Shown here in pieces: positions 26,819-62,111 of a stretch of DNA of 64,000 nt. Position numbers and translations under genes: made by a program. The notes beneath the pieces were generated by a model. The model was given only the letters and a program-made list of their open reading frames with translations. It was not told the DNA's origin and did no database searches. Source of the stretch: Pecten maximus (taxonomy: Eukaryota); the NCBI RefSeq assembly GCF_902652985.1, contig NC_047023.1:40238001-40302000 (forward strand), read 5' to 3'. Position 1 is the stretch's first letter; every line of letters starts with the position of its first letter.

Positions 26819-26913
26819 GTTATTGCATGGCGTTTGAGTAATAAGGGACTTATCAAACCCGAGTGAAGCGGGGGTGTAATAAGTCCCGAGTGATGCAAAA
26901 TTATGCAATAACT
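26819..26913. repeat. Imperfect palindrome (MITE-like hairpin). A homolog lies at ~58543-58625.
   Basis: gttattgcat...gggacttatcaaacccgagtgaagcgggggtgtaataagtccc...atgcaataac. Confidence 0.65.
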
Positions 26914-28059
26914 GACTTACTGCATACTTCTCGCCTCAAACAAACAGAAATAGTGGATCAATTCCAATACCGGTACACTTCTCATCTTTATTGTTTAATG
27001 TAAAATTTACCTGTTTGAATATTTGTCAATTCCAGGGAATTTTGGCTCAATACTAACAACACAGTCTGAAAGGTGTAGTACATCCTAATGGACACAATGA
27101 TGTTTTCATATAGAGTGAATTGCTGTCTTTAGTGTTATTAAAACATGAAATATAACGAGATGTTTGGGAACATTGTAATGTATGAAAGTTTACTAATCGT
27201 GATCATTTGCCCAGAAACGTAAGGAGTCTTTCAGTCTGTTGAACAATTAGAACAAACTACGGGAAACAACCTGTTCAGAAGCTTTAGAGAGGCAGAAAAA
27301 AACTAATTTTTAGTTTATTCTTCAAGATACAAAGGTACATGGTATTCAAATAATTACCATTCGTAACGGAGTTATCAATCCGAAAGGAACTCATGTAGAT
27401 ACGTATCTTACAAAAAATAAGTGTAAATTGGTATAGGGAAACGGCTCCTGAATATTAACTTTTTTTTCGGTAAATATTTATATATATGTGTTTTTTTAAC
27501 CAAGAAATTACAAATCTATATTATTTTGAAAATTTGAAATATGTCATACAAGTTTATACCTCCATGTTTGTTGCCTTCATCATTACTTAACCTGGTACTT
27601 ATTATTATTTCTAATTTTCATTTTCATTTTTCTGAAATTTAAATGTGTTAATCACAGATTTATGATATTTATATTTCCACTGGTTTTGCTAATTTTTGAT
27701 TATCTCCCCTTTCTTACAGCATTTGTTATCACAGTGCGCTGCCCACACACCTTTCATTGTCACCTAAACCTGATTGGCGATAGAAGGGGACTATATTTGC
27801 AGTGGTTGTGGTAATAAGTGGTTTATTGCCAACACTTTTCCATTGTGAGAGGTAGGAAGTATGCAGTTGAGACCTGTATTGCCTTAACAAGTGTTAATAA
27901 GCGTGTTTCTAGATTTACGTGTGAGCTGTTTTTACTGGATATGTCCACGCACAGGTAAATGTGTGATTCATATTTCGGACATAAACAGTAATGTCGGTAC
28001 CTGATAATACACAAGGAAAACTAAAAAAAATCAACTTACATTTGACAATTATCGTATAG

Positions 28060-28560: not shown

Positions 28561-29396
28561 GATACTTGTTACTGTTCGCACTCGTTTGACGCTACCAAAC
28601 CTAGAGAAACAATTTCGTTAACTAAGTGATCACGAGTTAACAATCAACTCGTGATATATTGACGGTAAGTGCCCAAAAATATAAAACAAACGGTGTGGTT
28701 TCCAGCAATGTTAATTTCCAAAAGGCGTCGGCCTAAAGATTGTTTTACACTTAAAGAACCACTCACAAACATTACTTTGTGCCATCAAAGCTGGTCTCGT
28801 TTGCTAAACAATTAGTCCAAGTTAATCGATGATGCACTTCCCTAATTAATTAATTACGTAACTAAGTCATTAACCTTAGTACGCAGATTGTCACAAGAGA
28901 CATAAAATGAACAGTTTATTCTAATGTAAAGGAAACTTTGAACCATAAAGTTAATACCAAAATACTAAGACAGCTAGTATACTGCCGTCATTTTTTTGTG
29001 AACATAACAACTTAACAATTTGTGCAAAGTGTTTTTTGGCTATGATTTGTGTAACCCAAATGACTTGTTGAACGATAGAGGGCATAACAGACCACCTGTT
29101 GCACTCAAATTCTTAACATATACATGTGCCTTTCCTAATATGAAAACCCCGTATCACACATACAAGTAATCCCGTCATATGGAGGACAAGTCTTCACATG
29201 ACCATCGCTGTTAATTATAATTCCGATGGATTCTTTCAACATCTATTACAATACCGTCCTCACAATGACAGATAGGCGTGTGGGTACGGGGTGCCTTGGA
29301 TGTGAGCATCTTACAAGAGGTAATATTCTGGAGCACAACACAGTGCTCTACGAAGCATTTTGGCAAGCAGGCGGCTGTCATAATTGACGGTACATT

Positions 29397-29558
29397 TAAG
29401 CATTACACTGTCTTTTTATGGATTATATGGTCTATATAGATGCCAGAGCTTTGCAGACAATCTTCATAATGCGCGCTAGCGCATTATGAAATGATTGTCT
29501 GCAAAGCTCTGGCATCTATATAGACCATATAATCCATAAAAAGACAGTTTAATGCTTA
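29397..29558. repeat. 162-bp near-perfect palindrome (~79-bp arms, GCTA loop)
   Basis: taagcattacactgtctttttatgg...cataatgcgc GCTA gcgcattatg...ccataaaaagacagtttaatgctta. One mismatch and one 2-nt indel. Confidence 0.97.
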
Positions 29559-29893
29559 TATTTACGTTTTCTATATTAGTTTCTTTTTGATTTCAACTTT
29601 AATTTTCATTATAATTTAAAATCTGACTTTTACCGACGTTTCCATTGTCAGAGGTCAACAAATTGAACAGCCTATTGTGATTCACGTGCTGATTGGCAAA
29701 AAAAAAAATTAAAAAAATAGTGCGTGGAAATAATTAAAAAAAATACTGAAAACATCATCAGATATTTTAATAACAATATTAATAATAGTGGTAGTCAGTA
29801 TTTCAGAATATACGGATGAATTATTCAGTTTGTTAACGATTTCGGATTTAAAAAAAAAAATTACCATCCGGAACAATTATGCGGATGGAAATT

Positions 29894-30376
29894 TCACCCG
29901 TCACCACGCGCACGCAACGGCTGACAGCATTGACAGAGTTTAGCTATGAAAGTTGAATGTGCAGTGGGAGAAAGTGGAATTCGCCAAAAAATATCAGGTG
30001 TAAACATGTTCTTTGATTGCATGGAAACAGCATTACAGTTTATAGTAGCTACAACAGCACCGGTGTCAGGGATACGACCAATGAGAGAAGTGACAGTGGC
30101 CGAGGGAGTTAGACGAGCTTCAGCGACAACGTTGCTTGTGACGGGTACCATGGCTGTTTCAAGTTTAGGATGCGTTAGACACGATGATGCACCACTTGAT
30201 GCTTTCTTTTGTGAAGAAGAAGCTGTTCTATTGTATGACCGGAGAGAAGCCTCGTTCTTATGATTTGATATAAACATGATGTGTCGGGTTTCAAAATTTT
30301 TGTCATTCAAACACTGGGTGGCGGTGGCGCGCAAACAATGTGGTGTGTAATGATTTTCCACTCTGGCCCCGATCAA
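29894..30376 (-). pseudogene. C-terminal fragment of a Crypton-type (DUF3504-like) tyrosine recombinase
   Basis: HYTPHCLRATATQCLNDKNFETRHIMFISNHKNEASLRSYNR carries H-x-x-R, H and Y catalytic positions with CryptonA/KCTD1/ZMYM-like spacing (TNHSLRAT...IM..TGH....L..Y), followed by a low-complexity tail. The N-terminal part is absent. Confidence 0.82.
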
Positions 30377-32090
30377 ATATCTTTTATTAAATCTTGTTTT
30401 ATTCCATTTTCGTGATTGTTAACCATTCTTACCTTTATTTTCGTTTTACATTTTAAGAATTTGTTTTCTGGTCTCTTACTCTATCCGATAGCATGATGAG
30501 CAATGATAAGATGTCATTTGTTTATATTGGTTGCAAGTAGTTCCGGGGGATCCGGTCGCGTATGAATAACACCTGAATGCACGATTTGGGTGTCAGTTAT
30601 GCATAGAATGGTGTCACGCTTTGGGTGTCAGTTATACTCTCATAGACTGCAAATTTGTTTAGTTTGTTTATATCATGGCTTTGCCATCCAAATGTAAATA
30701 TATATCTTTATTTCTAAGAGGTCTAATCACAAACTCCAGAGGATATCCTACTATGGCCAGAAGAAGCGGAACTGTTTGAAGTTAATGAGCAAAAAAATTG
30801 ACTTTAAAAATATATATCATATTCGGTTTTCTTATTCTTTTTAATATTTTGGTATTCAGTTTATTGTTCAACGCCCCTATTTCGGTAACCTAAAATAGTT
30901 TCTGTTTTGTGACATCTACGTTCTTAGTTTAGTAATTTTGCTACAAAATTAGTTAATAACGCAGGAACATGATCGATTAATCTTTGCAAAATATAAAGCC
31001 GAGGAAACAAACTTTGATGGCAAAAAGCAGTGTATCGGTAAGATGTCTTTAATGTTACAAATATTCTTTAGGCCGACCCCTAAAATTATCATTGCTGGAC
31101 ATCTCACCTTTGTATTTAAATAAAGAAGCTACACTAATATTTAAACATGTCTATATATCGCCCGCGATGGATTATACATCAGCTTTGTAGGGTAAATAAT
31201 GTAAGACGTATACCAATAACCTAACAAATTTGCAGAAACAAGCTTTTTGAATTATTTTATAGTTACCAACCCAAACACCTTCAAGGGCACTTTTTAAATA
31301 ACTTAATATTTTACCTTTGCGAAATGCGAGAAAGAATTATCCATTAGTTTCAGTTATGAATTACAGTACTACCACAATGTAACACATCTTAACAACGGCA
31401 GTCATTTTTCTGTATAAAGCAATGACATATCTAAATTGTAACATTGTTTTTACAAGTGTATGTCGTTGTGCCTTATTCGTTGGATTCTTCATTGTGTATA
31501 TAGAGACAATTCGTCTATGATGACATTTGATCGAATGTTTATATCATTATGTATTATCATTGGCTTTTAACAATGAATTTATGTACTTGTTAGTTCGTTG
31601 TTTTGGGAGGGTCACGTGGAAGGTTATAATATACTAAATATAACTCTCCTTAATTAAAGACTTATTATTACTGTTCATTTGCTGCGCCAGTCAGAAGTCG
31701 GTTGTTCAATATGGACAATGACGTGAATCATGAATTGAAAATGGCGCAAAACCATTTCCTTCTTCATGTTTTTACTTCAAAACATGTCCAAAAGTAAGAC
31801 GTGCAATAACAAAAATGTGTTTTTGATTCTAATGACATTTCACGAAATTTATCTAGCTGTTTTGACTGGAAAACTCAAACCTAGGACCTCTGAAATTTCG
31901 ATGACATTATTGTTTATATAATGACATCATAATCGATTTCTGACTGGCTATGTTAAACGCTCTGTGGCTTATTAAACAAGTAGCAATTGCAAAACCATCG
32001 AACAGATATATAACAAACCGATCGTAGGAGAAATAATGTCCCAGACATCAGTTTGTTAGTATCCGTATTTGTAACAAAAGAAACACTTAC

Positions 32091-32379
32091 TCTTTGAGAA
32101 GTACATTTTTGGTGTCGATACGTCAACATCCTCTTCAACAATTAATCGGGAGTAAGTGTCACACGTTTGGTCGGCCGCTGAGTACGAGAAAGAGAGGCAC
32201 TCCTCACTTTTGCAATTCTTTGCACAAATAGCATGGTTTGGGATTTCAGTATTGGAACTGAGTGTATAAAAACTGTGGTTTACTGGGTCTACACGCAGTA
32301 CTCTGTTGAACTGGTAACGCTTGGGCTTAACTGTTGCCTCTATTGCTATGACAACTAAAACCAGGCATAAGATTTTCAT
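32091..32379 (-). CDS. PAN-FReD gene, coding exon 1: signal peptide + PAN/apple domain
   Basis: ATG at 32379. MKILCLVLVVIAIEA is signal-like. CAKNCKSEECLSFSYSAADQTCDTY fits the PAN core C-x3-C...C.SF.Y.....C. Donor A|gtaagt is phase 1 and matches exon 2. Acceptor tttcag at 32397-32402 precedes the ATG. Confidence 0.85.
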
Positions 32380-33016
32380 TTTCACTGCTAACACTGCTGA
32401 AACAGAGTACCTGTCATCACATTATATACACCAACACAGCCTGTCAAAGTCGTGTTGGCATTAATAAAATATTCTTATCAGGTTGAAGATGCGATTGGCT
32501 ATTTACCTCTTAAACATGGTCACAGAGTGTGAACAAGTTGATCGATCATGTTTGGAAGACCGTAACTGGTGCTTGCCGTATTACTTACTACCACATACAG
32601 TTGCGTCACCATCCGAAGGTATACAACATATCACTGTGTGTATTGATTGTTATCTGTACTTTATATACCCTAAACCTCAACAAGCCCGACATATACCTTA
32701 GATTTAGTCAGTAAGACTTATGTCAACATATTGCGATTTTAATCCTGGTCGCTGACCAGAAAACCTATGAAATAAATAAACGCACATAAACAGCCACACA
32801 TCACTCACTCCATAATATATTTGCCATACAATGATGCGATGCAGCGAATGATTAGGATAACAATTACAGTATTTCACATATTACTTACCAGGAACATCGA
32901 GAGTAAGGTAGTAACTAGACATTGTTCTCGTCGGTACCATGTATCACTCTCGAGGGAATTTTTGAAAGTGAAGTAAGGAGACGTTGGTTATTAGTATTTG
33001 GACGAGTGGTCCGTGC

Positions 33017-33363: not shown

Positions 33364-35719
33364 CTGTATGTCTAAAACCCGATGTCAAAACCAAACTTGA
33401 TGACAGGTTTATTGTTATGTTCAGATGAGTCATCTAACAACTCCATTTCTTTTGCAAGACCAGCAAACAAATGTCTTAGTCCCAGAAGACCAAAGAGAAT
33501 GACACACGACTAAGTCCCAGAGGACCAGAGAGGAAAACTTACGACTATGTCCCTGAGGACAAAAGAGGCAAGTATATGACTAAGTAAATATACTCATTCT
33601 CAGGCAGTCAGGCAGGCAAACATAAGAGATCGTTGGCGGCGGTCATATTCCGTAGGAGACTTACACCATTTTTCATTACATCAAGAACATTCGTTGATAA
33701 AAGTTCTATATTTGTTCGTGAAGGCTACAAGAAAACAAATGAAATATGAATTTAAATATGGCCTTGCTTCAGATATATCTTGTAGATGCTCGAATTATGT
33801 TAGACGATTCAACAAAGGCGCTTGTTGAAAAAAGAATAGTATTAACAGGTGGTATTATTTCGATTTCGAAACTTATTTCGACTCATTTTGATCCTCCCTA
33901 GACGCCTCCTGGGTATTGACATTAACAAAAACACGAAACAGCTGTATGATACAGTTTACCTAATGTTGGCTCTACTGTGTTTAAATCTAGGTTTTCATTG
34001 AAAGCTTCTTATATCGTATGTATCTTTCACATGAACTTTAGACACTATAAAACCATTATGGGGATGTCGATTCGATTCGTTTAAATGACTCCCAAACAAT
34101 TTTAAACTATAACATATTAAACGGATTTTTGTGTTCCTAGCAAGAAGTATGCTTATGATAAATAGTAAAATTACGGAGTGTGGGGCTTTCTTCAGAAATA
34201 TGCATCTTTTATTTCAAATCTTAAAACCAGTCTTTTTGCAATTTTTAGAGTTCTTGACAGTGTCTGACGAGAGCATTTCGATAATTTGCAATTCAAGGCA
34301 AATATAGATTCAGTGTTTTTACAGTATATGAAGTCAAATCCGCTTAAACAAATGATTATATTGTGTTACAGACACTTGTGTGCATGAAGTATATGTGAAA
34401 CACATAAGCTTCAGTTATTGCGAATACTTACAATTGATCGAGTGACGTTTGTTAAATTCAACCATAGAAGTTATTTATATTGCAAAATATCGCTGAAATT
34501 GCTACATGTAGCTTATATGATCTTAAATGGTCAGACAACATACCGTGTTTTGGGTAAGGTATAATGTCCTTCCTGAAACATAGAAAGATGTGTCAGTTTC
34601 AGTGATTTCATCAATGTATGTAGACATTGCACATAGGTAAACGTGCTAACTAGTGCTTGAGGTAGTCGATGGCGCAGTTGATGTATCGTCAAAGTGACCT
34701 AAAGATATACGTTCGATTCTTTCCTTGGCGTCGTAAATCAATTTGATTTTTTAGTGAGCAAGTGATTTTCTGATGGAAGATAATTATCATTTTATTGGCC
34801 AAACGTATTCTCCGAAAAGTATGTAATTTTTTTTTTATTTCAAGCCTAATTTATATTTGTCTACCTTTGTCTATCTTAACAACGGCTCTTCATACAACCC
34901 GGTGTATTGTCCACTATTGGTATGGGATTTTGAGGTGTTTTTCGGTCGGTAATGGTAAAGTGATCCCCAGAAGCACCATCCTTCTTCATTTGTCAATCAA
35001 GTTTGGTTCACTAATACATATCAAGACATGGTCATGGAATAGTCATACTTGAAGAGTTCAGCGTCTAAAATCAGCAATGAAAAGAAGAAGGAAACACTTC
35101 ATTGTCTGAAGAAAATCTTATTATCAATAACTAGTCATCGAACCAACTACTTTGTTCAGTTCGTTTTTGTTAACTAGTAAAGGTAAGACTTACACGATTT
35201 CTTCAAATCCAGAATTACCTGTAAAATCATCATTTGGACAGGTGCATCATTGATCTCATCAGTTTAATTCAAAGTCAAATCTCTAGCCCCGTTTGAGTGC
35301 GGAAGACTTTCGGCGGCGGTATGCTCTATTTGTTTTTGCCTCTTCAGTAAAAATGATTGATAACAATTATTGGCTAAAGATTTCATTGTCGGACATTACA
35401 GTTTGTCACATATTAATTTTACTCAGAAAGATAGAGTAATTTGACATAATGGCTTTAAGGCAAGATTTCGCTAATTATGCGGAGTAGATATCAGTGATTT
35501 ATGCGCTGTGTACTGTTTCATTCTGCACAAGTGAGAGGTTGAAGGATACAGTAGTAAAAGGCCAGAGTGACTATGAATTCACCGCTTTTCAAGATAGAAG
35601 ATGAAATGGCGGAAAGACTTTTTATGAGTAAAAGTGGCAATACAAAAAAAAAAAAATGTCTAGCTTTGGGAATTTTTCGTTTCTTCATATGGACACATGG
35701 TTTGTTGGATGTGCAATGA

Positions 35720-36336
35720 TGTAAGGCAGCGAGTATGTCGATTAGAAAACAGATTAGTCATATATATTGTCAATTGCAATTGAAGTGTAAGTCGCTATGT
35801 ATTTGGGATAAAAAATGTAGCTCCCGTCGCCGTTCCGTTGTTACAGTGTTAAGGAACTGGGCCCAATTTATAGCATGATCATACGACATCCAAAATCGGT
35901 CATGTGACCCGGACGTTCTTACAGCAGGACACTGTCCAAGTTTTGGATTGGCCTTCAAAATCTCCCGATTTGGACTCAATGGAACAAATCAGCGGTGTCC
36001 TCCCTCAAGCTTACAGAAACTAGCGCGGGAATTGAACGAGGAGTGAAACGGCATCCCGGCTCACACCATATTGATGATATACAGGCTCTATGCGCCGGCG
36101 TTGTAATGTTGTGGTCCTAGCCAATGGTGGTCATATACACGTTACTAACACCGTTCTTGGAGACATGACCACCACACAAAATCACCGAACCGGAACGGAT
36201 TTCGGTCGGCATTTAAGCGTCCTTAGAAGGACATCCTACTTCAACATTTGATCCCTCATTTACTACATTTCACTAAAACCTGACATATCTACCGCCGTTT
36301 CAAACATCGATAATATTTCTTTATTTGTTAAGTATA
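35720..36336 (+). pseudogene. Tc1 transposase 3' remnant with probable right terminus. Repeated at ~39685-40300 and ~43640-44256.
   Basis: TRTFLQQDTVQVLDWPSKSPDLDSMEQI, PPSSLQKLARELNEE*, SMRRRCNVVVLANGGH. Terminus tttctttatttgttaagtata. Confidence 0.85.
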
Positions 36337-37224
36337 TATTCACAACTACTAGTCTGAGGCCGGATTCACCGGAGACGGCAAGGAGAAACCAACAGTGTGT
36401 AGAATATTGACAAACTTAAACATGTAAGATGATAGATAAAAAAGCCAACACCAATTCTGTACGATATTCAATATAAATTTATACTTGTTGTGTTGACAAT
36501 AAAATATTTTGAAATTGAAAATAGATAAAAAAAAAAAAAAAAAAAACATTCTGTTTTTGTGTGTTCTTCGGGTTCCATTGTGACTAGTTTAATATCCGAT
36601 TTTGTTCATATTTAGTGCTTTTTACATCGTAAAACATAGAACCGTATCCGATTGTCGCAAACACCAGGTATGGGGAATTGCAATATTCACTATAGCGCTT
36701 CTGGGCAAATACATAAATCCACGATTTCGTCTTTTGAATAGCTATACTCTTGCATAATGTATCTTCCTATAGGGATTTTTGGGATCAGACTCATTTCCGT
36801 TGTCATAACAAACTAAAAAACATGCGCTTACATTTGTTTGTTGTTTTGGGGCGTTTATATCATCGCAACAGCAGGGTCATATAAGAGTGGGTTTCAAAGA
36901 AACAACAACAGTCGAGGTCATTTGAGGACGGGTGTCTAGGAGAAATCAACAGTCGTGGATGAACCGGGATATCAATAACATGTTTTATGAATAAATTCTA
37001 TCATTTGGTGCAACATTTCTTCTACCCAATATGTTAATGATTCCTTTAAGCCTTGCTAATTAATAAATAATAACTACGCTGATGAATTATATGTAGAGCC
37101 ACATTAAATTCTATTCCAAGGAGTGACAATTGTGTTGAGCCCTACTAAGTAAGTATCTTGTCTATGTTTTTTTTTTACTTCTAATTAACATTACTTAGTC
37201 AACTTTCGGAACGATCTAAAATAA

Positions 37225-37472
37225 ATTCCTAAAACCGAAAAACTTAAAAGACTTTCATAACAAAATTCCATGGCAGAGAGTCAAAAGCTTTCTCAAAATC
37301 TAGCAAATGCAACATGCCTGGTATGTCTTTTTATTCTGTGTATTGCATAATATCATAAACTAGCCTTGTGTTCTCTCCAATGTATCTTCCTGCAAGAAAT
37401 CCTGTTTAGTCATGACTAATAAGCTTATCTTACACAATTTTAATTCGATTTGCGATTACCCCAGAAGCTAAT
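37225..37472 (-). pseudogene. Tx1/L1-clade LINE reverse transcriptase fragment. Repeated at ~41175-41420 and ~45143-45390.
   Basis: IANRIKIV*DKLISHD*TGFLAGRYIGENTRLVYDIMQYTE*KDIPGMLHLLDFEKAFDSLPWNF...KFFGF. Confidence 0.88.
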
Positions 37473-38102
37473 GTTTAAAAGGGAAATGGTTCTCTCGTTT
37501 TAATGGAATATCTAGGTGTATATCCCTTGATATTCCTAGTTTTAATTCCTTGTCGTTGTACAATATAAATATGACAAGTGACCATTTTAAAAATTAAGTT
37601 TATAGACCGAACTACAAACATACCAATTTTCTTCTTTTTTTTATTACTATTATTAATTTTTTCCATCCGGTCGAATCTGAGTGATTAATATAAATCAAAA
37701 TAAATTTGTTTCGCAATTGTTGTTAACTAAATAATGTTTGCATTTTTCAAATATTCACGAAAGTTATATTTATATAGCGGCATGACGGTTTACCTAAAAA
37801 TACTCACATTTACACTGCAGCCTAAATCTAATTAAAATTACATTTTTAATTTCTACTCCTCTACAATACACTGCAATACAAGTCCAACTATAAAACTTTA
37901 CAAAGCTAACTTGAAGTTTACGAGTCCATAGCTTTCAAACCTTTATCATAACGTCATTTTTATTGCGCCGTCATAATTGTGACGTCGGCGATAAGGAAAT
38001 ATGCCTGTGGCTGTTCCGTCTTTGACGATATTTTTTTCATTGATGGTACGAGCAAAATTCCTCGATTAAGCCTTTAAAACTCGTTGTCAAATGCAAATAC
38101 AT

Positions 38103-38267
38103 ATATGAACGTTTACTTGTTTTCAGTTGGAAGTTATGGGCTGATGAATGCTAACTGGACAAAGGCAAATTCAACATGAAGCTCTAGTGCGCTTCATTAA
38201 CATTGTCTTTGTCCAGTTGGCTTTCATCAGCCCATAACTTCCAACTGTAAGCAGTTGAATGCTTATA
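38103..38267. repeat. ~165-bp imperfect palindrome. Repeated at ~42052-42216 and ~46021-46185.
   Basis: cagttggaagttatgggctgatgaa...ctggacaaag...tgaagc tctagtgc gcttca...ctttgtccag...ttcatcagcccataacttccaactg. Confidence 0.9.
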
Positions 38268-39060
38268 CATACATGTACCAAACAATACATAATAATACAT
38301 ACCTACGGTTTGGAATGTAGTTGATAACATTTAAAATATCATCATTATATTATTTCCCGGACTTCGTAGCGTTGTTGTTAACCACGTATTAAAAGGGGCG
38401 TAACTCTTACAGGAAATTCACGAAACAATAAATGAAGACAGTTGTTCTTTTATTTCTTTCACTAATCTTACTTATGAGTAATACAAGATATGTGATATAT
38501 ATAAAACATCTTGTACGGATATCTAAGACATAATTACAAATGCACAAGAGTTACTTTAAACAGCATGTATCGGTTACGCTTTTTACTTTTTCGACCAATA
38601 TGATTGAAATTCGAGCCATATAATACACATGATATACATAACAATATTAATATGTGCATGATGATAGATGTGATAGGGTCAGATATACACTGTAGCTGTT
38701 ATATTGTCGTGGTTTCTGTCATGTCTCTTTATGTGTGTTTACAGGGAGTGTTCTGTTTACCTGTGATGTTTATTTATAATGTCCATGTGCGTCCGGTAGT
38801 CATGTACTGTTGCGTCTATATTGATCGTTAACCTGTTTGTCCAGTCGTGTGCGGGTATGTTAGAGTGTGAAGGGATGTAAACCTGGTAAATACTAGCCGC
38901 AATATATCGCTCGGCTAGAGAGATCTTCTCTGTGTATTGTTTTTTTGTCATGCACCCAACTTGATCTGAGTCTCCTAAGTTATTCATTTCAAGTCATGTA
39001 GAGATGATGAACTGATTTGGTAATGGTGTTTGAAATTGACAGAAGGGAATTTAGACAGAT

Positions 39061-39540
39061 GTACGGCTTTTCACCTCAAAGCGACACCTTTAAAATATTG
39101 ATACCCAGGTTCCGTGATCTTGGATCCGTCAGGGACTTACATTCTGTGTCATAATTTGTACGTGAAGTATGGCAAATAAACACAAACTCAAGATATATAA
39201 CGTTCGGGTAGTTTCATTAAGACAACACTGTATAATATATACAGAGACAAAGTATACAACTCTGTCATACACTCAGCACACATACTATATGACAACTTGA
39301 CAGTAATTTAGTAAACTAGCGGCTACATGGCCCTACCATAAACGATAGTACACACAACTACTGACAGTGAGTGTTACTATAACAGTCTTTTAAAGACTTT
39401 CATTCTGACTACGTGAGTCAGGGAGAGCTGATCCAGGCAGTCATATCGAGACTTTCCATCTGACTGACGAACTACGCAGGTGTACCGGCTTATATAGACA
39501 ACCGGGGCAATCCGCACGTGCAATATTCGTGCCAAATTAC
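39061..39540 (-). mobile_element. Truncated LTR copy created by the triplication. A second one lies at 43015-43495.
   Basis: Matches the first ~480 bp of LTR 46984-47613, ends at the unit junction, and has the same caga left flank. Confidence 0.92.
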
Positions 39541-42500
39541 GAATTCACCGCTTTTCAAGATAGAAGATGAAATGGCGGAAAGACTTTTTATGAGTACAAG
39601 TGGCAATACAAAAAAAAAAAAATTCTAGCTTTGGGAATTTTTCGTTTCTTCATATGGACACATGGTTTGTTGGATGTGCAATGATGTAAGGCAGCGAGTA
39701 TGTCGATTAGAAAACAGATTAGTCATATATATTGTCAATTGCAATTGAAGTGTAAGTCGCTATGTATTTGGGATAAAAAATGTAGCTCCCGTCGCCGTTC
39801 CGTTGTTACAGTGTTAAGGAACTGGGCCCAATTTATAGCATGATCATACGACATCCAAAATCGGTCATGTGACCCGGACGTTCTTACAGCAGGACACTGT
39901 CCAAGTTTTGGATTGGCCTTCAAAATCTCCCGATTTGGACTCAATGGAACAAATCAGCGGTGTCCTCCCTCAAGCTTACAGAAACTAGCGCGGGAATTGA
40001 ACGAGGAGTGAAACGGCATCCCGGCTCACACCATATGATGATATACAGGCTCTATGCGCCGGCCTTGTAATGTTGTGGTCCTAGCCAATGGTGGTCATAT
40101 ACACGTTACTAACACCGTTCTTGGAGACATGACCACCACACAAAATCACCGAACCGGAACGGATTTTGGTCGGCATTTAAGCGTCCTTAGAAGGACATCA
40201 TACTTCAAGATTTGATCCCTCATTTACTACATTTCACTAAAACCTGACATATCTACCGCCGTTTCAAACATCGATAATATTTCTTTATTTGTTAAGTATA
40301 TATTCACAACTACTAGTCTGAGGCCGGATTCACCGGAGACGGCAAGGAGAAACCAACAGTGTGTAGAATATTGACAAACTTAAACATGTAAGATGATAGA
40401 TAAAAAAGCCAACACCAATTCTGTACGATATTCAATGTAAATTTATACTTGTTGTGTTGACAATAAAATATTTTGAAATTGAAAATAGATAAAAAAAAAA
40501 GTTTTTGTGTGTTCTTCGGGTTCCATTGTGACTAGTTTAATATCCGATTTTGTTCATATTTAGTGCTTTTTACATCGTAAAACATAGAACCGTATCCGAT
40601 TGTCGCAAACACCAGGTATGGGGAATTGCAATATTCACTATAGCGCTTCTGGGCAAATACATAAATCCACGATTTCGTCTTTTGAATAGCTATACTCTTG
40701 CATAATGTATCTTCCTATGGGGATTTTGGGGATCAGACTCGTTTCCGTTGTCATAACAAACTAAAAAACATGCGCTTACATTTGTTTGTTGTTTTGGGGC
40801 GTTTATATCATCGCAACAGCAGGGTCATATAAGAGTGGGTTTCAAAGAAACAACAACAGTCGAGGTCATTTGAGGACGGGTGTCTAGGAGAAATCAACAG
40901 TCGTGGATGAACCGGGATATCAATAACATGTTTTATGAATAAATTCTATCATTTGGTGCAACATTTCTTCTACCCAATATGTTAATGATTCCTTTAAGCC
41001 TTGCTAATTAATAAATAATAACTACGATGATTAATTATATGTAGAGCCACATTAAATTCTATTCCAAGGAGTGACAATTGTGTTGAGCCCTACTAAGTAA
41101 GTATCTTGTCTATGTTTTTTTTTTTACTTCTAATTAACATTACTTAGTCAACTTTCGGAACGATCTAAAATAAATTCCTAAAACCGAAAAACTTAAAAGA
41201 CTTTCATAACAAAATTCCATGGCAGAGAGTCAAAAGCTTTCTCAAAATCTAGCAAATGCAACATGCCTGGTATGTCTTTTTATTCTGTGTATTGCATAAT
41301 ATCATAAACTAGCCTTGTGTTCTCTCCAATGTATCTTCCTGCAAGAAATCCTGTTTAGTCATGACTAATAAGCTTATCTTACACAATTTTAATTCGATTT
41401 GCGATTACCCCAGAAGCTAATGTTTAAAAGGGAAATGGTTCTCTCGTTTTAATGGAATATCTAGGTGTATATCCCTTGATATTCCTAGTTTTAATTCCTT
41501 GTCGTTGTACAATATAAATATGACAAGTGACCATTTTAAAAATTAAGTTTATAGACCGAACTACAAACATACCAATTTTCTTCTTTTTTTTATTACTATT
41601 ATTAATTTTTTCCATCCGGTCGAATCAGAGTGATTAATATAAATCAAAATAAATTTGTTTCGCAATTGTTGTTAACTAAATAATGTTTGCATTTTTCAAA
41701 TATTCACGAAAGTTATATTTATATAGCGGCATGACGGTTTACCTAAAAATACTCACATTTACACTGAAGCCTAAATCTAATTAAAATTACATTTTAAATT
41801 TCTACTCCTCTACAATACACTGCAATACAAGTCCAACTATAAAACTTTACAAAGCTAACTTGAAGTTTACGAGTCCATAGCTTCCAAACCTTTATCATAA
41901 CGTCATTTTTATTGCGCCGTCATAATTGTGACGTCGGCAATAAGGAAATATGCCTGTGGCTGTTCCGTCTTTGACGATATTTTTTTCATTGATGGTACGA
42001 GCAAAATTCCTCGATTAAGCCTTTAAAACTCGTTGTCAAATGCAAATACATATATGAACGTTTACTTGTTTTCAGTTGGAAGTTATGGGCTGATGAATGC
42101 TAACTGGACAAAGGCAAATTCAACATGAAGCTCTAGTGCGCTTCATTAACATTGTCTTTGTCCAGTTGGCTTTCATCAGCCCATAACTTCCAACTGTAAG
42201 CAGTTGAATGCTTATACATACCTGTACCAAACAATACATAATGATACATACCTACGGTTTGGAATGTAGTTGATAATATTTGAAATATCATCATTATATT
42301 ATTTCCTGGACTTCGTAGCGTTGTTGTTAACCACGTATTAAAAGGGGCGTAACTCTTACAGGAAATTCACGAAACAATAAATGAAGATAGTTGTTCTTTT
42401 ATTTCTTTCACTAATCTTACTTATGAGTAATACAATATATGTGATATATATAAAACATCTTGTGCGGATATCTAAGACATAATTACAAATGCACAAGAGT

Positions 42501-45500
42501 TACTTTAAACAGCATGTATCGGTTACGCTTTTTACTTTTTCGACCAATATGATTGAAATTCGAGCCATATAATACACATGATATACATAACAATATTAAT
42601 ATGTGCATGATGATAGATGTGATAGGGTCAGATATACACTGTAGCTGTTATATTGTCGTGGTTTCAGTCATGTCTCTTTATGTGTGTTATCGTTTACAGG
42701 GAGTGTTCTGTTTACCTGTGATGTTTATTTATAATGTCCATGTGCGTCCGGTAGTCATGTACTGTTGCGTCTATATTGATCGTTAACCTGTTTGTCCAGT
42801 CGTGTGCGGGTATGTTAGAGTGTGAAGGGATGTAACCCTGGTAAATACTAGCCGCAATATATCGCTCGGCTAGAGAGATCTTCTCTGTGTATTGTTTTTT
42901 TGTCATGCACCCAACTTGATCTGAGTCTCCTAAGTTATTCATTTCAAGTCATGTAGAGATGATGAACTGATTTGGTAATGGTGTTTGAAATTGACAGAAG
43001 GGAATTTAGACAGATGTACGGCTTTTCACCTCAAAGCGACACCTTTAAAATATTGATACCCAGGTTCCGTGATCTTGGATCCGTCAGGGACTTACATTCT
43101 GTGTCATAATTTGTACGTGAAGTATGGCAAATAAACACAAACTCAAGATATATAACGTTCGGGTAGTTTCATTAAGACAACACTGTATAATATATACAGA
43201 GACAAAGTATACAACTCTGTCATACACTCAGCACACATACTATATGACAACTTGACAGTAATTTAGTAAACTAGCGCCTACATGGCCCTACCATAAACGA
43301 TAGTACACACAACTACTGACAGTGAGTGTTACTATAACAGTCTTTTAAAGACTTTCATTCTGACTACGTGAGTCAGGGAGAGCTGATCCAGGCAGTCATA
43401 TCGAGACTTTCTATCTGACTGACGAACTACGCAGGTGTACCGGCTTATATAGACAACCGCGGCAATCCGCACGTGCAATATTCGTGCCAAATTACGAATT
43501 CACCGCTTTTCAAGATAGAAGATGAAATGGCGGAAAGACTTTTTATGAGTAAAAGTGGCAATACAAAAAAAAAAAAAATTCTAGCTTTGGGAATTTTTCG
43601 TTTCTTCATATGGACACATGGTTTGTTGGATGTGCAATGATGTAAGGCAGCGAGTATGTCGATTAGAAAACAGATTAGTCATATATATTGTCAATTGCAA
43701 TTGAAGTGTAAGTCGCTATGTATTTGGGATAAAAAATGTAGCTCCCGTCGCCGTTCCGTTGTTACAGTGTTAAGGAACTGGGCCCAATTTATAGCATGAT
43801 CATACGACATCCAAAATCGGTCATGTGACCCGGACGTTCTTACAGCAGGACACTGTCCAAGTTTTGGATTGGCCTTCAAAATCTCCCGATTTGGACTCAA
43901 TGGAACAAATCAGCGGTGTCCTCCCTCAAGCTTACAGAAACTGGCGCGGGAATTGAACGAGGAGTGAAACGCCATCCCGGCTCACACCATTTGATGATAT
44001 ACAGGCTCTATGCGCCGGCGTTGTAATGTTGTGGTCCTAGCCAATGGTGGTCATATACACGTTACTAACACCGTTCTTGGAGACATGACCACCACACAAA
44101 ATCACCGAACCGGAACGGATTTTGGTCGGCATTTAAGCGTCCTTAGAAGGACATCATACTTCAAGATTTGATCCCTCATTTACTACATTTCACTAAAACC
44201 TGACATATCTACCGCCGTTTCAAACATCGATAATATTTCTTTATTTGTTAAGTATATATTCACAACTACTAGTCTGAGGCCGGATTCACCGGAGACGGCA
44301 AGGAGAAACCAACAGTGTGTAGAATATTGACAAACTTAAACATGTAAGATGATAGATAAAAAAGCCAACACCAATTCTGTACGATATTCAATGTAAATTT
44401 ATACTTGTTGTGTTGACAATAAAATATTTTGAAATTGAAAATAGATAAAAAAAAACAAAAAAACATTCTGTTTTTGTGTGTTCTTCGGGTTCCATTGTGA
44501 CTAGTTTAATATCCGATTTTGTTCATATTTAGTGCTTTTTACATCGTAAAACATAGAACCGTATCCGATTGTCGCAAACACCAGGTATGGGGAATTGCAA
44601 TATTCACTATAGCGCTTCTGGGCAAATACATAAATCCACGATTTCGTCTTTTGAATAGCTATACTCTTGCATAATGTATCTTCCTATGGGGATTTTGGAG
44701 ATCAGACTCGTTTCCGTTGTCATAACAAACTAAAAAACATGCGCTTACATTTGTTTGTTGTTTTGGGGCGTTTATATCATCGCAACAGCAGGGTCATATA
44801 AGAGTGGGTTTCAAAGAAACAACAACAGTCGAGGTCATTTGAGGACGGGTGTCTAGGAGAAATCAACAGTCGTGGATGAACCGGGATATCAATAACATGT
44901 TTTATGAATAAATTCTATCATTTGGTGCAACATTTCTTCTACCCAATATGTTAATGATTCCTTTAAGCCTTGCTAATTAATAAATAATAACTACGCTGAT
45001 GAATTATATGTAGAGCCACATTAAATTCTATTCCAAGGAGTGACAATTGTGTTGAGCCCTACTAAGTAAGTATCTTGTCTATGTTTTTTTTTTTACTTCT
45101 AATTAACATTACTTAGTCAACTTTCGGAACGATCTAAAATAAATTCCTAAAACCGAAAAACTTAAAAGACTTTCATAACAAAATTCCATGGCAGAGAGTC
45201 AAAAGCTTTCTCAAAATCTAGCAAATGCAACATGCCTGGTATGTCTTTTTATTCTGTGTATTGCATAATATCATAAACTAGCCTTGTGTTCTCTCCAATG
45301 TATCTTCCTGCAAGAAATCCTGTTTAGTCATGACTAATAAGCTTATCTTACACAATTTTAATTCGATTTGCGATTACCCCAGAAGCTAATGTTTAAAAGG
45401 GAAATGGTTCTCTCGTTTTAATGGAATATCTAGGTGTATATCCCTTGATATTCCTAGTTTTAATTCCTTGTCGTTGTACAATATAAATATGACAAGTGAC

Positions 45501-47613
45501 CATTTTAAAAATTAAGTTTATAGACCGAACTACAAACATACCAATTTTCTTCTTTTTTTTATTACTATTATTAATTTTTTTCCATCCGGTCGAATCAGAG
45601 TGATTAATATAAATCAAAATAAATTTGTTTCGCAATTGTTGTTAACTAAATAATGTTTGCATTTTTCAAATATTCACGAAAGTTATATTTATATAGCGGC
45701 ATGACGGTTTACCTAAAAATACTCACATTGATACTGAAGCCTAAATCTAATTAAAATTACATTTTTAATTTCTACTCCTCTACAATACACTGCAATACAA
45801 GTCCAACTATAAAACTTTACAAAGCTAACTTGAAGTTTACGAGTCCATAGCTTCCAAACCTTTATCATAACGTCATTTTATTGCGCCGTCATCATTGTGA
45901 CGTCGGCGATAAGGAAATATGCCTGTGGCTGTTCCGTCTTTGACGATATTTTTTTCATTGATGGTACGAGCAAAATTCCTCGATTAAGCCTTTAAAACTC
46001 GTTGTCAAATGCAAATACATATATGAACGTTTACTTGTTTTCAGTTGGAAGTTATGGGCTGATGAATGCTAACTGGACAAAGGCAAATTCAACATGAAGC
46101 TCTAGTGCGCTTCATTAACATTGTCTTTGTCCAGTTGGCTTTCATCAGCCCATAACTTCCAACTGTAAGCAGTTGAATGCTTATACATACCTGTACCAAA
46201 CAATACATAATGATACATACCTACGGTTTGGAATGTAGTTGATAACATTTGAAATATCATCATTATATTATTTCCTGGACTTCGTAGCGTTGTTGTTAAC
46301 CACGTATTAAAAGGGGCGTAACTCTTACAGGAAATTCACGAAACAATAAATGAAGATAGTTGTTCTTTTATTTCTTTCACTAATCTTACTTATGAGTAAT
46401 ACAATATATGTGATATATATAAAACATCTTGTGCGGATATCTAAGACATAATTACAAATGCACAAGAGTTACTTTAAACAGCATGTATCGGTTACGCTTT
46501 TTACTTTTTCGACCAATATGATTGAAATTCGAGCCATATAATACACATGATATACATAACAATATTAATATGTGCATGATGATAGATGTGATAGGGTCAG
46601 ATATACACTGTAGCTGTTATATTGTTGTGGTTTCAGTCATGTCTCTTTATGTGTGTTATCGTTTACAGGGAGTGTTCTGTTTACCTGTGATGTTTATTTA
46701 TAATGTCCATGTGCGTCCGGTAGTCATGTACTGTTGCGTCTATATTGATCGTTAACCTGTTTGTCCAGTCGTGTGCGGGTATGTTAGAGTGTGAAGGGAT
46801 GTAACCCTGGTAAATACTAGCCGCAATATATCGCTCGGCTAGAGAGATCTTCTCTGTGTATTGTTTTTTTGTCATGCACCCAACTTGATCTGAGTCTCCT
46901 AAGTTATTCATTTCAAGTCATGTAGAGATGATGAACTGATTTGGTAATGGTGTTTGAAATTGACAGAAGGGAATTTAGACAGATGTACGGCTTTTCACCT
47001 CAAAGCGACACCTTTAAAATATTGATACCCAGGTTCCGTGATCTTGGATCCGTCAGGGACTTACATTCTGTGTCATAATTTGTACGTGAAGTATGGCAAA
47101 TAAACACAAACTCATGATATATAACGTTCGGGTAGTTTCATTAAGACAACACTGTATAATATATACAGAGACAAAGTATACAACTCTGTTATACACTCAG
47201 CACACATACTATATGACAACTTGACAGTAGTTTAGTAAACTAGCGGCTACATGGCCCTACCATAAACGATAGTACACACAACTACTGACAGTGAGTGTTA
47301 CTATAACAGTCTTTTAAAGACTTTCATTCTGACATAGTGTGTCAGGGAGAGCTGATCCAGGCAGTCCTATCGAGACTTTCCATCTGACTGACGAACTACG
47401 CAGGTGTACCGGCTTATATAGACAACCGCGGCAATCCGCACGTGCAATATTCGTGCCAAATTACCTGTACTCGGAACACTTCCGCTGTCAAATGACTAAG
47501 GAGCCCCGAATAGTGTAAACAGCCGGTATATCGAAAAATACAGTGGAACTTGTAAGTAGACAGTCACCATATAATCTACTCAATAAAGTTTAAACATTTC
47601 CTCGACTTTTACA

Positions 47614-53699: not shown

Positions 53700-55000
53700 A
53701 TCATGAAGGAAGTTTAGTTAAGTAGACTAGCTGGCCCTTTCACGGTTAAACCTATTTCAACACTCCATATATCCCCTTTAGGAGTTGAACATTACACACC
53801 TAGCTTATCCTAGGGAAGGAGGCATAAATAATATGATTGACCCCCAGGAGGTTTTAGTTCAGTACTCATCCTTTGACAAGGTGGTAACAATGAATTCCAA
53901 TGGGGCATTGTTGGGGAAATGGACATTAAGTCCGCTTTCAGGTTGATTCCAATACACCCTTTAGATTTTGACCTTTTAGGCTTCCAATTAAAGGGAATAT
54001 TAATGTTTGACAAGTGTCTCCAAAGGGGTTGCTCTATATATTGTAGCATTTTTGAGAAATTTGCTAGGTTTATTGAATGGATAGTAAAGGAGAAGTCTGG
54101 GGATATATCATTGGATCATTATTTAGATGTCTTGTTTTCTGGTAGAGCTAACACAGGAACCTGTGGCATTTTGATGGGAGAGTTTAGGGAAGTTTTTGAT
54201 GAACTTGGCATTCCTATTGCTAGAGAGAAAGCACAGGGCCCCAAAAACTATACTGATATTTTTAGGGTTAGAATTGACACAGAAAAGATGAATGGGAAAA
54301 TTCCCCATGACAAACAAGTGTCAAGTAGTACTTATTGTTGAAATTAACTTAATGTTACAAAAGGGAAAAGTTACCCTGAAAGAGCTACAGTCATTAGCTG
54401 GTTCCTTGTCAATTTATGCTAGGGAAATCCCTGTGGCATGTTAATTCATCAGACGGATGTTTGATGCAATGACAGGTGCATGTAAATCATTACACTTGGT
54501 TCTAAGTACTCAATGAATTAGACAGGATCTTGAATTATGGGTAATTTCCTAAATCATTTCAATGGTGAATCCTATATTTCTGAAGTAGATTAGTCATCTA
54601 ATGAGTCTTAGGGCTTACTTACAGACAGTGCAGAAAATAACACCTTTAGATTTGGGGCTCTTTTTTGGGAACCATTGGTCTGTTTTTAGGTGGCCAACCC
54701 TATGGCAGAACGAACCACTCATGAGAGATATTACATTTCTAGAGTTTGCCAATTCTTCTTGCATTCCTTACTTGGAAAACAGTTTTCAGTTTTCAAAAAA
54801 AAAAAAAAAAAAAAAATGGTTTGTTGATAATGAGGCACTTGTTACTATACTCAACAAGAAAACTGCAAAGTCTTTGAGGGTTTATGTCCTTATTGCGCCC
54901 CCTGGCGTTGTGCTACATGAATAATAGTATTCAGTTTTAGACAATACATCTGGCAGGGGTATCCTATTCAGCATCTGATGCTTTATCTTGGTTTTAGCTC
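53700..55000 (+). pseudogene. DIRS/Ngaro RT + RNase H, frameshifted
   Basis: RT: MDIKSAFRLIPIHP.DF.LLGF...FDKCL..GCS...IFEKF...HYLD. RNase H: TDSA, DITFLE, FVDNEALVTILNKKT. Confidence 0.9.
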
Positions 55001-55089
55001 TCAAAGTTTCGGCAGGTAATCGCAGGAGCAGACATAGGATCGACAGAAATACCAGGGAATTTCTGTGCTACATATTGACAGTGAAGTTG

Positions 55090-55975
55090 ACAGGTTGATA
55101 GGGAGTTCTTTCACAGAAAATGCTAAGGCATTATACAGTAAAGCTATGACTAGTTTTGAAAAAATATTTAAGTGATATGAACTTGGTGTATAGTTGGCCC
55201 CATCTATTAAGCAAATAGTTCATTACATAGCTTATATGTCATTACAGGGTTCAAGGCATTCAATAGTGCAATGTTACTTAGCGGGTCTTGGTTTCAATTG
55301 CAAAAAAAAAAAAAAAAAAAATTGCTTAACCCAACTCAGCATTTCATTGTACATAAAATGCTGGAGGGTATTAGAAGATGCAATGGTGTGGCTGATTCAC
55401 GACTGCCAATTACATTGGATTTGTTGATAAAGTTTATTTCTGTTCTTCTTCAGATCTGTAGCTCCTCCTTTGAAGTGTGACCGTTTTTATGTGCTTATTC
55501 CATGGTATTTTATGGATTTTTCAGAGTTGGGGAGTTAACATGCGGTAGCAAAACACCAGTAAGATGTGTAGACAGCTCACAAGTTATTGTAGAAGATGGC
55601 TTTGCTTACATACAGTTATCATTTTCCAAGATAGACCAATATGAAAAGGAAACTACGATTATATTGCCCTATGTTAACAATATCAGCCGCCCTGTTTCAA
55701 ATATAAAGTTAAACTTGGACATTAGGCCTGGTGTAAGGGGCACATTCCCTTGTCATTTCGGTTGTAAACCACGTACCTGGTATAAATTCTCAAGTATATT
55801 AAGAGAGGCTTGCAAGGCAGTAGGCATAGAGGCTAACACTAACAGATATACATCTCATTCATTCTGTATCGGAGCAGCAACAACAGCTGCAATGGCCAAC
55901 ATGTTGGAGGGGGAAATCATGGACATCAGCCGTTGGCGGTCACTAACATATAACAAGTACATAAGGATTCCAACA
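55090..55975 (+). pseudogene. DIRS/Ngaro tyrosine recombinase (SAM-like N-domain + catalytic domain), disrupted
   Basis: IVHYIAYMSLQG...YLAGL, RLPIT, FYGFFRVGE, SKIDQ, YTSHSFCIGAATTAA (catalytic R replaced by C), RWRS..Y.KYIR. Confidence 0.9.
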
Positions 55976-56009
55976 CAAACATTTTTAGACCAATTTTTAG
56001 CGTGTTCAA

Positions 56010-56217
56010 GGACAGGTCTGGCTGGTGGGGTCCTCGATAATAAGGAGGGCTTGTGTACATGCCCAAAGTAGACCGGGGGGAAGTCAATGGAACATTGGCA
56101 GAGTTGGACTGTCCTTGTGGTGGCAGGGCAAAGGGGGAATGAAGATCAAGCACCTGCGACCAGTAGTTCAGCATTTGGTTAAGTTTGAGGATCCTCCTCG
56201 CATTTTCATATTGCATG

Positions 56218-58950: not shown

Positions 58951-59063
58951 CCGTAGGCGATTCCTCTGACGTCAAGTCCTCGTCCGGTGTCTGTGAAATC
59001 ATATCTGAAGGTAAACGTGTCAATTTGTTCTGTGATACGGACACGTCGGATGGACCATGGTAT
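58951..59063 (+). CDS. FReD paralog, exon equivalent to coding exon 2 (function uncertain, possible pseudogene)
   Basis: tatag|CC...TAT|gtaagt, 113 nt. VGDSSDVKSSSGVCEIISEGKRVNLFCDTDTSDGPWY. About 90% identical to 26358-26470. Confidence 0.7.
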
Positions 59064-59533
59064 GTAAGTATGGAATACTTCAAATTCCCCTATAATGGAG
59101 TGAATGAGTATATAACCTTTATAACATTTAGTGCTAACCTCAGGTATTGTGCGTAGAATATCTATTGTAATATTTTGAAGTATGATGTACATTATATAGA
59201 AAATGTTCTCTCTTTTTTGTTCTAATTTCATGACAATATGTTAGTATACATATTCTGTAGTCTATGTAGGCAACACATGGTGGCATTTAATAAGAATTTC
59301 CTCTTCGCATTTCTATGTAATTCACTGTACGGAATATGGAAACTCAGGACACCCAATTACCAGTCCATGCAAAGGTGCAAAGGTTCTTTGATATCAGCAC
59401 AGTTCGTCGTCAATTTTGTGTTGTACTTAAAAATGTATAGGATTTGACACATGTATATAAACATCATTGAATATCTTCTTCAATACAATAGTTGTATTGA
59501 AAAAGTGAAGCAATGATAAAAAAATTTACACAG

Positions 59534-59603
59534 GTGATACAGAGACGAACAAGTGGAGATGTCGAAAACGGTTTCGGGGATCTACTGGGGAATTTCTGGA
59601 TTG
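59534..59603 (+). CDS. FReD paralog, exon 3 equivalent with an in-frame 27-nt deletion
   Basis: acacag|GTG...G|gtaagt, 70 nt. VIQRRTSGDVENGFGDLLGNFWI. Confidence 0.7.
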
Positions 59604-61714: not shown

Positions 61715-61879
61715 GCAATGACAACCTTCATCTGCTGACTACCATCCCGAGGATCCTCCGAGTGGAACTAGAGGCCTGGGACGGGACAAGAGGATATGCC
61801 CAGTACTCGACATTCCAGGTGGCCGGTGAAGATCTGAACTACAAAATTCTTGTACAAGGATTCTCCGTGAACGTTTCCT
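61715..61879 (+). CDS. FReD paralog, exon 4 equivalent. The last exon is expected beyond the window end.
   Basis: aaag|GC...T|gtaagt, 165 nt. GNDNLHLLTTIPRILRVELEAWDGTRGYAQYSTFQVAGEDLNYKILVQGFSVNVS. 7 substitutions versus 22748-22912. Confidence 0.75.
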
Positions 61880-62111
61880 GTAAGTTATCACCATAATTTT
61901 TTTTATTATTATTTCAAAAGGTATGGTACTTCATTGTACTAATATCAATAAAAATATCATCGCCTACTCATGCTACTTATCATACATGCACATGTATTTG
62001 CTAATATGTTTTATATGGACGTCATCGTATCTTAAAGCAAAGTGAAAGTGATTGAACTAGTCTTTATCTCAGAGAACGGGACGACTTAACATATTTGTTT
62101 TCAGTATGTTC

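Follow-up and report, generated by a model that had tools for sequence, protein, structure and literature searches.

In the available text of the 2011 description by Kojima and Jurka, no terminal repeats were found in animal Cryptons (PMC3212892), and the available part of its supplement lists the termini as n.d. for all eight CryptonA rows. For CryptonF-1_cRei, copy number is reported to rise despite clean excisions (PMC9977147, in the sections available), and the accessible text of a 2026 paper on Glomhopper describes poorly conserved repeats and does not contain 'hairpin' or 'palindrom' (PMC13465315). Bacterial attC sites are, according to the available sections of PMC4792948, palindromes without sequence conservation; their folded bottom strand, with its extrahelical bases, is recombined and replication resolves the product.

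We analysed a window of 64,000 nucleotides of Pecten maximus DNA (contig NC_047023.1, 40,238,001-40,302,000), to which all coordinates without a locus name refer. A first-pass annotation had pointed to palindromes of ~160 bp at 29397-29558 and, in three copies, at 38103-38267, and both are present with the apices that it quoted. Its proposal that they are the cis module of Crypton-like elements, whether autonomous or not, was upheld, as the palindromes travel with the element and are enriched downstream of tyrosine recombinase (YR) genes. We conclude that palindromes A and B are the 3′ end module of CryptonA transposons, whose YR is of the DUF3504 type. The features of the first element, a member of family A, are as follows.

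29396-30701, minus strand: family A element, an internally deleted, non-autonomous copy assigned to CryptonA, 1306 bp (shared ends, empty allele)
30690-30701, minus strand: 5′ end word ATATTTACATTT, its first AT element-borne (junction counts, minisatellite neighbours)
30382-30383, minus strand: internal-deletion joint, where ~1.45 kb of the YR gene is absent (blastn against L091)
30200-30376, minus strand: YR C-terminal remnant with H-x-x-R, H and Y
29558-29569, plus strand: inverted internal copy of the 5′ end word, adjoining palindrome A on its inner side
29491-29492, plus strand: inner-arm bulge of 2 nt, separated from the loop by ~12 bp
29473-29480, plus strand: GCGNNAGC mini-hairpin tip, loop GCTA at 29475-29478
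29397-29558, no strand: terminal palindrome A, 162 bp (self-complementarity, shuffles)
29394-29395, minus strand: target dinucleotide AT at the 3′ junction, host DNA (the empty allele holds one AT)

The arms of palindrome A are complementary at 96% over 73 nt, with one substitution, the 2-nt bulge and a 4-nt loop as imperfections, and its best self-centred score was 253 bits, compared with at most 46 bits in 20 shuffles of 27-47 kb. Searching the 918-Mb genome with this palindrome gave 866 first-look candidates; the 40 that were scored match at 97-100%, nearly all of them starting at the palindrome's left end. The whole stretch up to ~30701 is common to 28 of the 30 family A loci fetched, with the same ends, and AT stands at the 5′ junction in 52/52 family A copies. 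The truncated YR fragment lies 335 bp from the palindrome, as had been described, but it is not a lone gene, being part of a multi-copy family with a fixed internal deletion. The window copy matches both ends of a 2.77-kb copy at locus L091, and is such an element minus the ~1.45 kb. The deletion joint was also found in contigs of 4/4 RNA-type runs; its ends read CA..TG, and it is therefore no splice. An empty site, which the first-pass annotation had suggested looking for, was recovered: no flank paralogue spanned the site, and reads supplied it instead, the empty allele skipping 1306 bp and joining 29393 to 30700 in 4/4 DNA runs (contigs; 3 samples, 3 studies). The insertion is therefore recent, and family A is a young family.

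An older, 70%-identical inverted repeat (28679-28968 and 30841-31121) flanks the insertion and is probably a decayed TIR element that formed the landing site of this copy. Another dispersed repeat, with 314 candidates, lies at 29060-29222. Further away, 53877-56068 holds broken reverse-transcriptase and YR-like frames in tandem, resembling a DIRS or Ngaro remnant (RVT_1 E 0.013; the YR-like frame had no Pfam match). The window also contains a large old inverted duplication (21400-27330 and 58150-64000, 70-93%) with fibrinogen-domain exons and a 42-45 bp minisatellite, and, at 503-1120 and 32056-32421, a neurotransmitter-gated ion channel exon and a short PAN-domain frame. The second element belongs to family B.

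37800-38268, plus strand: gene-less family B element of ~410 bp, decayed copy
41749-42217, plus strand: second family B copy, product of tandem triplication
45719-46186, plus strand: third family B copy, product of tandem triplication
38103-38267, no strand: terminal palindrome B, first copy, with a decayed tip
38101-38270, 42050-42219 and 46019-46188: the palindrome B copies

The core of palindrome B is self-complementary at 81%, and the copy at 37800-38268 has a degenerate 5′ word and a ~60-bp insertion near its 5′ end. The genome search with palindrome B gave 1271 first-look candidates, 40 of them scored, and the loci define a gene-less family of ~410 bp. Three copies do stand in the window, but they represent one multiplied insertion, because it sits inside a tandem triplication of a 3.96-kb unit (35572-47464, 98.7% identity); these near-identical units reflect either a recent triplication or an effect of the assembly. 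Family B also showed a 6-bp insertion at its inner joint (38094-38110 and L034), and the copies concerned have a similar sequence in their 3′ flank. The terminus quoted as common to both palindromes is present in each, but in A it is the inner end facing the YR and in B the outer end. The arms had been called unrelated; the interiors of A and B are in fact weakly related (z 3.2-3.4 against shuffles), whereas those of most other family pairs are at background. In four loci (L044, L095, L067, L013), families A and B are inserted in or beside each other's ends, giving mixed tandems; the element ends resemble their own target.

Being MITE-like in shape and size, each palindrome could instead be a TIR MITE in its own right, one that belongs to a DDE family and lands at Crypton ends, the outcome that the first-pass annotation had set against its own proposal. 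The palindromes, however, have no target-site duplication. Moreover, none of the 10 loci with two outer-type ends belongs to family A, the two that belong to family B consist of one with a body and one fold-back, and the arms are specific to each YR family. On these grounds the reading is refuted for A and B, and we give it next to no credence. Locus L171 is possibly a solo palindrome of another family.

The window YR fragment matches Phage_integrase with E 5.7e-5, short of the curated cut-off. A search with it gave 150 scored matches, including copies with 384-425 stop-free codons. The 2.77-kb copy (L091 5203-7969) has both ends together with an exon upstream and a frame of 424 codons; no other long frame was found inside it, and it encodes no replication protein. 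DUF3504 and Phage_integrase exceeded the Pfam cut-off in 4/4 frames, and the catalytic residues R, H-x-x-R, H and Y were present in five of six aligned open frames (L091, L096, L100, L103, L104), L093 being without the second R (HCLH replaces HCLR). Such a complete catalytic set (R, H-x-x-R, Y) separates CryptonA from domesticated DUF3504 genes. Homologues numbered 131 at E<=1e-20, the named ones being mollusc proteins, two of them labelled KCTD1_15. Contigs from 4/4 RNA-type runs gave no cover of the intact YR (L091 5595-6881).

An AlphaFold model of the YR (mean pLDDT 88.8, lowest certainty at 181-187) matched QRICH1, Cre and XerA in Foldseek, and a sequence search of solved structures with the YR returned 0 matches. 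With VIA-align the model superimposed on XerA with Z 15.6 (rmsd 3.0, 174 aligned), followed by Cre (13.7), QRICH1 (12.5), IntI (11.4) and protelomerases (5.3-5.7). By protein, mobility and absent target duplication, we assign the elements to CryptonA. They have a DUF3504-type YR and neither reverse transcriptase nor DDE transposase, they occur as dispersed mobile copies with non-autonomous derivatives (866 and 1271 candidates, empty allele), and they combine the lack of target-site duplication with a short donor motif like the target. Their internal inverted word and terminal palindrome depart from the 2011 description of no terminal repeats; since that description records an absence of finding (n.d.), the mismatch weakens the fit to CryptonA as described, not the lineage. 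The full-length Crypton of L091 lies within a short minisatellite, beside an adenovirus-type protease frame (Peptidase_C5) and a 433-aa frame (L091 615-4900). These surroundings resemble a Polinton/Maverick region.

Every complete A or B element studied follows one order, namely 5′ word, body, inverted 5′ word, palindrome and GCTTAA, and in element orientation the 5′ word of both families is ATATTTACATTT. The first-pass annotation had captured the palindrome module; the 5′ end, the inverted copy of it within the element, and the target site had escaped it. Its expectation of enrichment near YR hits was confirmed in 58 YR loci, 18 picked from a first YR search and 40 from 143 rows of a second: a palindrome starts 300-1150 bp downstream of the YR in 31/58 loci, compared with 11/88 control windows. 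Three of these 31 palindromes (L107, L127, L135) are probably not terminal ones. A downstream palindrome was present in 17/31 YR families, the design extending to YR families at 24-35% identity; the other 14/31 had none in the scored window, and many of their copies are truncated. Counts over families are not independent, because the families share ancestry. On the YR tree, where 48/58 rows were long enough, palindrome presence did not cluster beyond shuffles (152/500), since truncated copies scatter the label. In one family (L160, L162, L164) three copies end at one base and no long palindrome was found; these loci have a short GGC-TYC-GCC hairpin ~60 bp before the 3′ end, with GNA on the antisense strand. 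A metagenome scan for other taxa yielded three loci, of which two were too short downstream and the third, L188, had no palindrome in 1578 bp.

The 5′ word and the inner flank of the palindrome covary. The words of L133, L143, L146, L156 and L149 each scored best on their own family's flank, at 9-10 of 10; word boundaries came from defined ends, and for the single-copy L143 and L149 from best match only. These boundary-defined words replaced a scan with sliding 16-mers, which was dropped because controls scored as high as own matches. At the natural head-to-tail joints of L062 and L053, the hairpin runs 10-12 bp past the joint and has two unpaired bases there. As the flank inside the palindrome changes along with the 5′ word, the hairpin therefore continues across natural joints. 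Each YR family, on the alignments made here, has its own arms.

The plus strand at the tip of palindrome A is the element's antisense (bottom) strand. Among 12 YR-oriented palindromes with an intact tip, 10 have GCGNAGC/GCGNNAGC on the antisense strand and 0/12 have it on the sense strand, the remaining two (L149, L163) reading TTTA. Family B likewise has a tip of this type on the antisense strand and at family level its tip, in element orientation, is the same as that of family A; in the L099 family the sense strand bears the GNNA loop in one of three copies. G and A are constant, while the bases between them differ (GCTA, GAA, GTA, GGA). According to the available text of PMC13037366, GCGNAGC/GCGNNAGC are extra-stable DNA mini-hairpins closed by a sheared G.A pair. 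In 6/6 distant families the antisense strand also has G.A mismatches close to the tip, and in 7/7 near families folded the inner arm exceeds its partner by 1-3 bases at a distance of 8-12 bp from the loop. ViennaRNA folding energies favoured neither strand and were uninformative as a strand test.

A palindrome downstream of a YR gene might also act as RNA, either as self-silencing dsRNA or as a transcript end signal, and the deleted form is indeed present in contigs of RNA-type runs. The stabilising features, however, lie on the antisense strand, and GNA triloops have been characterised in DNA (PMC13037366, sections available). Rfam gave 0 matches in 28.5-47 kb, and the same design is kept in the gene-less family B. 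We therefore regard an RNA role as highly improbable.

Junctions of families A and B were pooled, using 115 of 128 5′ junctions (7 tandems and 6 degenerate ends dropped) and 119 of 131 3′ ends (10 tandems and 2 without GCTTA dropped). The target is a dyad, YAT-N6-ATR, with Y at -9 in 99/115, A at -8 in 96/115 and T at -7 in 65/115 on the left side, and A at +1 in 93/119, T at +2 in 109/119 and R at +3 in 118/119 on the right. The target is broken at the right-hand edge of its 6-bp spacer (114/115), the donor spacer stands at the 5′ junction in 1/115, and GCTTA is kept at 129/131 3′ ends. Some copies had been picked by likeness to an intact end and ~70 loci by YR or by inner end and tip; the two exceptions overall bound the selection error at 3′ ends. 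AT occurs at 109/115 5′ junctions versus 87/119 3′ junctions (p 5e-6). At target position -1, T was seen 71 times versus 35 for A (p 6e-4, A and B pooled). This bias reaches significance in family A (38:11) but fails to do so in family B (33:24, p 0.29). T at -1 is the base of the folded donor's inner arm and A that of the double-stranded joint.

Neighbouring minisatellite units, which exist for 24/121 complete copies, were used as stand-in empty sites. In six minisatellite copies the 3′ junction dinucleotide is not AT; neighbours match it in 5/6, and the 5′ junction is AT. Because the neighbours hold the 3′ dinucleotide, insertion has duplicated nothing: AT on the 5′ side belongs to the element and the 3′ dinucleotide to the target, an origin thereby demonstrated in copies other than the window's. 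Tandem repeats contain 24/121 complete copies versus 10.6-11.3% of control AT sites. Any bias is no more than mild, and one array counted thrice contributes part of it. Insertion specific for microsatellites, as reported for CryptonV in the available text of PMC8869645, was considered and rejected on these proportions.

These scars bear on the number of strand exchanges. YRs, as in the loxP geometry, cut each strand near that strand's own 5′ spacer edge. The enzyme is left on a 3′-phosphotyrosine and 5′-OH ends in the crossover region are swapped (PMC5871717, figure legend). Taken with the break at the right spacer edge, this cut position therefore points to cutting of the antisense strand, which also bears the mini-hairpin. 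If two exchanges took place between unlike spacers, both daughter types would result; one was seen, so a single exchange fits. The classical Crypton model, in which a double-stranded circle integrates by two exchanges independently of homology, as in Tn916/Tn1549, and the palindrome and internal word serve as accessory sites for binding or bending, has already been proposed in print (PMC3212892 and PMC13565253, in the parts available). It agrees with the YR fold, closest to XerA and Cre, with a target geometry like the Tn1549 consensus TTTT-n6-AAAA (PMC5871717, text available), and with the existence of head-to-tail tandems (7/128 5′ junctions). It does not predict the one daughter type (114/115) unless repair is strand-biased, however, and it leaves the strand-specific mini-hairpin, the G.A pairs, the joint bulge and the -1 T bias unexplained. 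We consider it unlikely, though a serious contender.

The symmetry of the arms gave further evidence. In 72 family B copies, 10 rare substitutions were mirrored in both arms and 128 occurred in one arm, whereas shuffling predicted a mean of 0.94 mirrored changes with a maximum of 6 (500 shuffles), in keeping with the earlier suggestion of arm-to-arm copying. Among exact-pattern tips, 221 were normal and 17 flipped (17/238). Flips involve the tip alone, the tip and bulge, or render both arms alike, and the outer markers are unmoved; in family B these read TAG/CAG 13 times and the reverse never. Inversion of the whole palindrome between joint and internal word, as by FLP, was thus rejected, as the outer markers are not inverted. 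Flips and mirrored changes could be mimicked by assembly polishing.

In protelomerase-like resolution, which the first-pass annotation had touched on, or in rolling-hairpin replication, cutting of the palindrome by the YR would produce hairpin ends that are covalently closed. A long, perfect palindrome beside a YR would suit such a process, as would the 17 matches with flipped tips. Flips would then be expected in half of the copies, however, and they are a small minority restricted to the tip or tip and bulge, so that tip orientation is essentially fixed and the family B markers are never reversed. In addition, the palindrome occupies one element end only, its axis is an unpaired loop of 3-4 nt without a perfect dyad, and the YR fold is nearer XerA, Cre and IntI, protelomerases ranking low (Z 5.3-5.7 vs 15.6 for XerA). 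This reading is very improbable.

In a survey of 58 family A copies, three of which had been selected for flips, 41 had normal tips, and the nearest neighbour of 13 of the other 17 was normal; rearranged tips therefore arise repeatedly. Five unrelated family A copies (L063, L071, L079, L087, L093) share the same centre deletion, which lies between two copies of a 10-bp self-complementary word. A tip-less subfamily was not supported, as these five do not group together. A family B palindrome at L168 1500-1665 has two outer ends and 14 mirrored flank bases, and is a fold-back product. The hairpin might be mainly a priming or replication signal on the excised strand (a second-strand origin or fold-back primer), with a double-stranded form integrating. 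The L168 product agrees with this, as does the observation that rearranged tips found no subfamilies (13/17 nearest a normal copy); the same mini-hairpins occur at single-strand origins of phage G4 and plasmids and at the N4 promoter (PMC13037366, text available). Priming does not by itself explain the one-sided scars or the covarying internal word, however, and the element is without a replication protein. We consider it improbable.

Taken together, these results favour a model in which a folded single antisense strand would be inserted by one strand exchange, as in integrons, which we hold to be probable on sequence statistics from one genome, the source of all the evidence on mechanism. The donor site of the recombinase would likely be the folded antisense strand of the 3′ end and not a double-stranded circle. 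The antisense strand would fold, as a cruciform or when single-stranded, and the YR would release it as a single-stranded circle, with the joint within the stem beside the bulge. In a double-stranded YAT-N6-ATR target, the antisense strand would then be joined to the circle by one exchange; host replication would resolve the junction. The donor would keep its other strand, and copy number would therefore rise. Arm interiors would be free to drift, because only pairing matters, and repair or template switching in the hairpin would likely keep the arms matched and occasionally flip or delete the tip. One-sided scars (114/115) fit exchange of one strand, and strand-biased repair could give the same; in silico folding of natural joints indicates an attC-type palindromic site with extrahelical bases and free arm sequence. 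More broadly, animal CryptonA elements may, with a little better than even probability, be 'peel-and-paste' YR transposons, one folded strand being excised and inserted and structure (joint stem with 2-nt bulge, mini-hairpin tip) being read in place of sequence, kept to 24% YR identity. We know of no description of integron-like folded-strand chemistry in eukaryotes.

The locus provides precisely defined ends, the consensus of the target, a prediction of which strand is cut and where, and open-frame catalytic copies in a still-polymorphic family; the question is therefore reducible to a direct oligo assay. If true, the model would explain how a YR element multiplies, would give an annotation rule for many unclassified palindromic repeats in animal genomes, and would offer a small integrase with no target requirement beyond a loose AT-rich site.

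The consensi of Eulor5 and Eulor6 may be hairpin-like. Like the present families, these vertebrate elements and, in salmon, Crypton-N1_SSa along with CryptonA-N2_SSa are non-autonomous Crypton derivatives alike at their termini, and 'palindrom' does not occur in the available text of the Eulor5/Eulor6 paper (PMC5753468). The literature searched, in the portions accessible, contained no description of this end design; Repbase, Dfam and subscription journals, outside the search, may hold one. With animal CryptonA, as far as described in the available text of PMC3212892, the elements share a single DUF3504 YR gene, a length of 2-3 kb, many non-autonomous derivatives and the lack of target-site duplication; unlike the 2011 elements they have defined ends, with a 10-12 bp word and its internal inverted copy, a ~160-bp 3′ palindrome and the YAT-N6-ATR target. 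[quoted passage not shown]

Tn916 and Tn1549 resemble the present elements in their YR, their AT-rich dyad-n6-dyad target and the little spacer homology needed. Their flanking bases are variable and travel as heteroduplex within a double-stranded circle (PMC5871717, sections available), whereas the spacer of the Crypton donor does not vary and always comes to lie at the 3′ junction. With the attC x attI reaction of IntI and the XerCD-driven integration of CTX phage, as set out in the available sections of PMC4792948, the Crypton elements share a shape-conserved palindrome with extrahelical bases, one preferred strand, a YR and, as predicted here, a single exchange. Those systems are bacterial, and IntI has a dedicated insertion for extrahelical bases. 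Unlike attC, the Crypton site becomes complete only once the two ends are joined, and the YR is encoded by the element itself.
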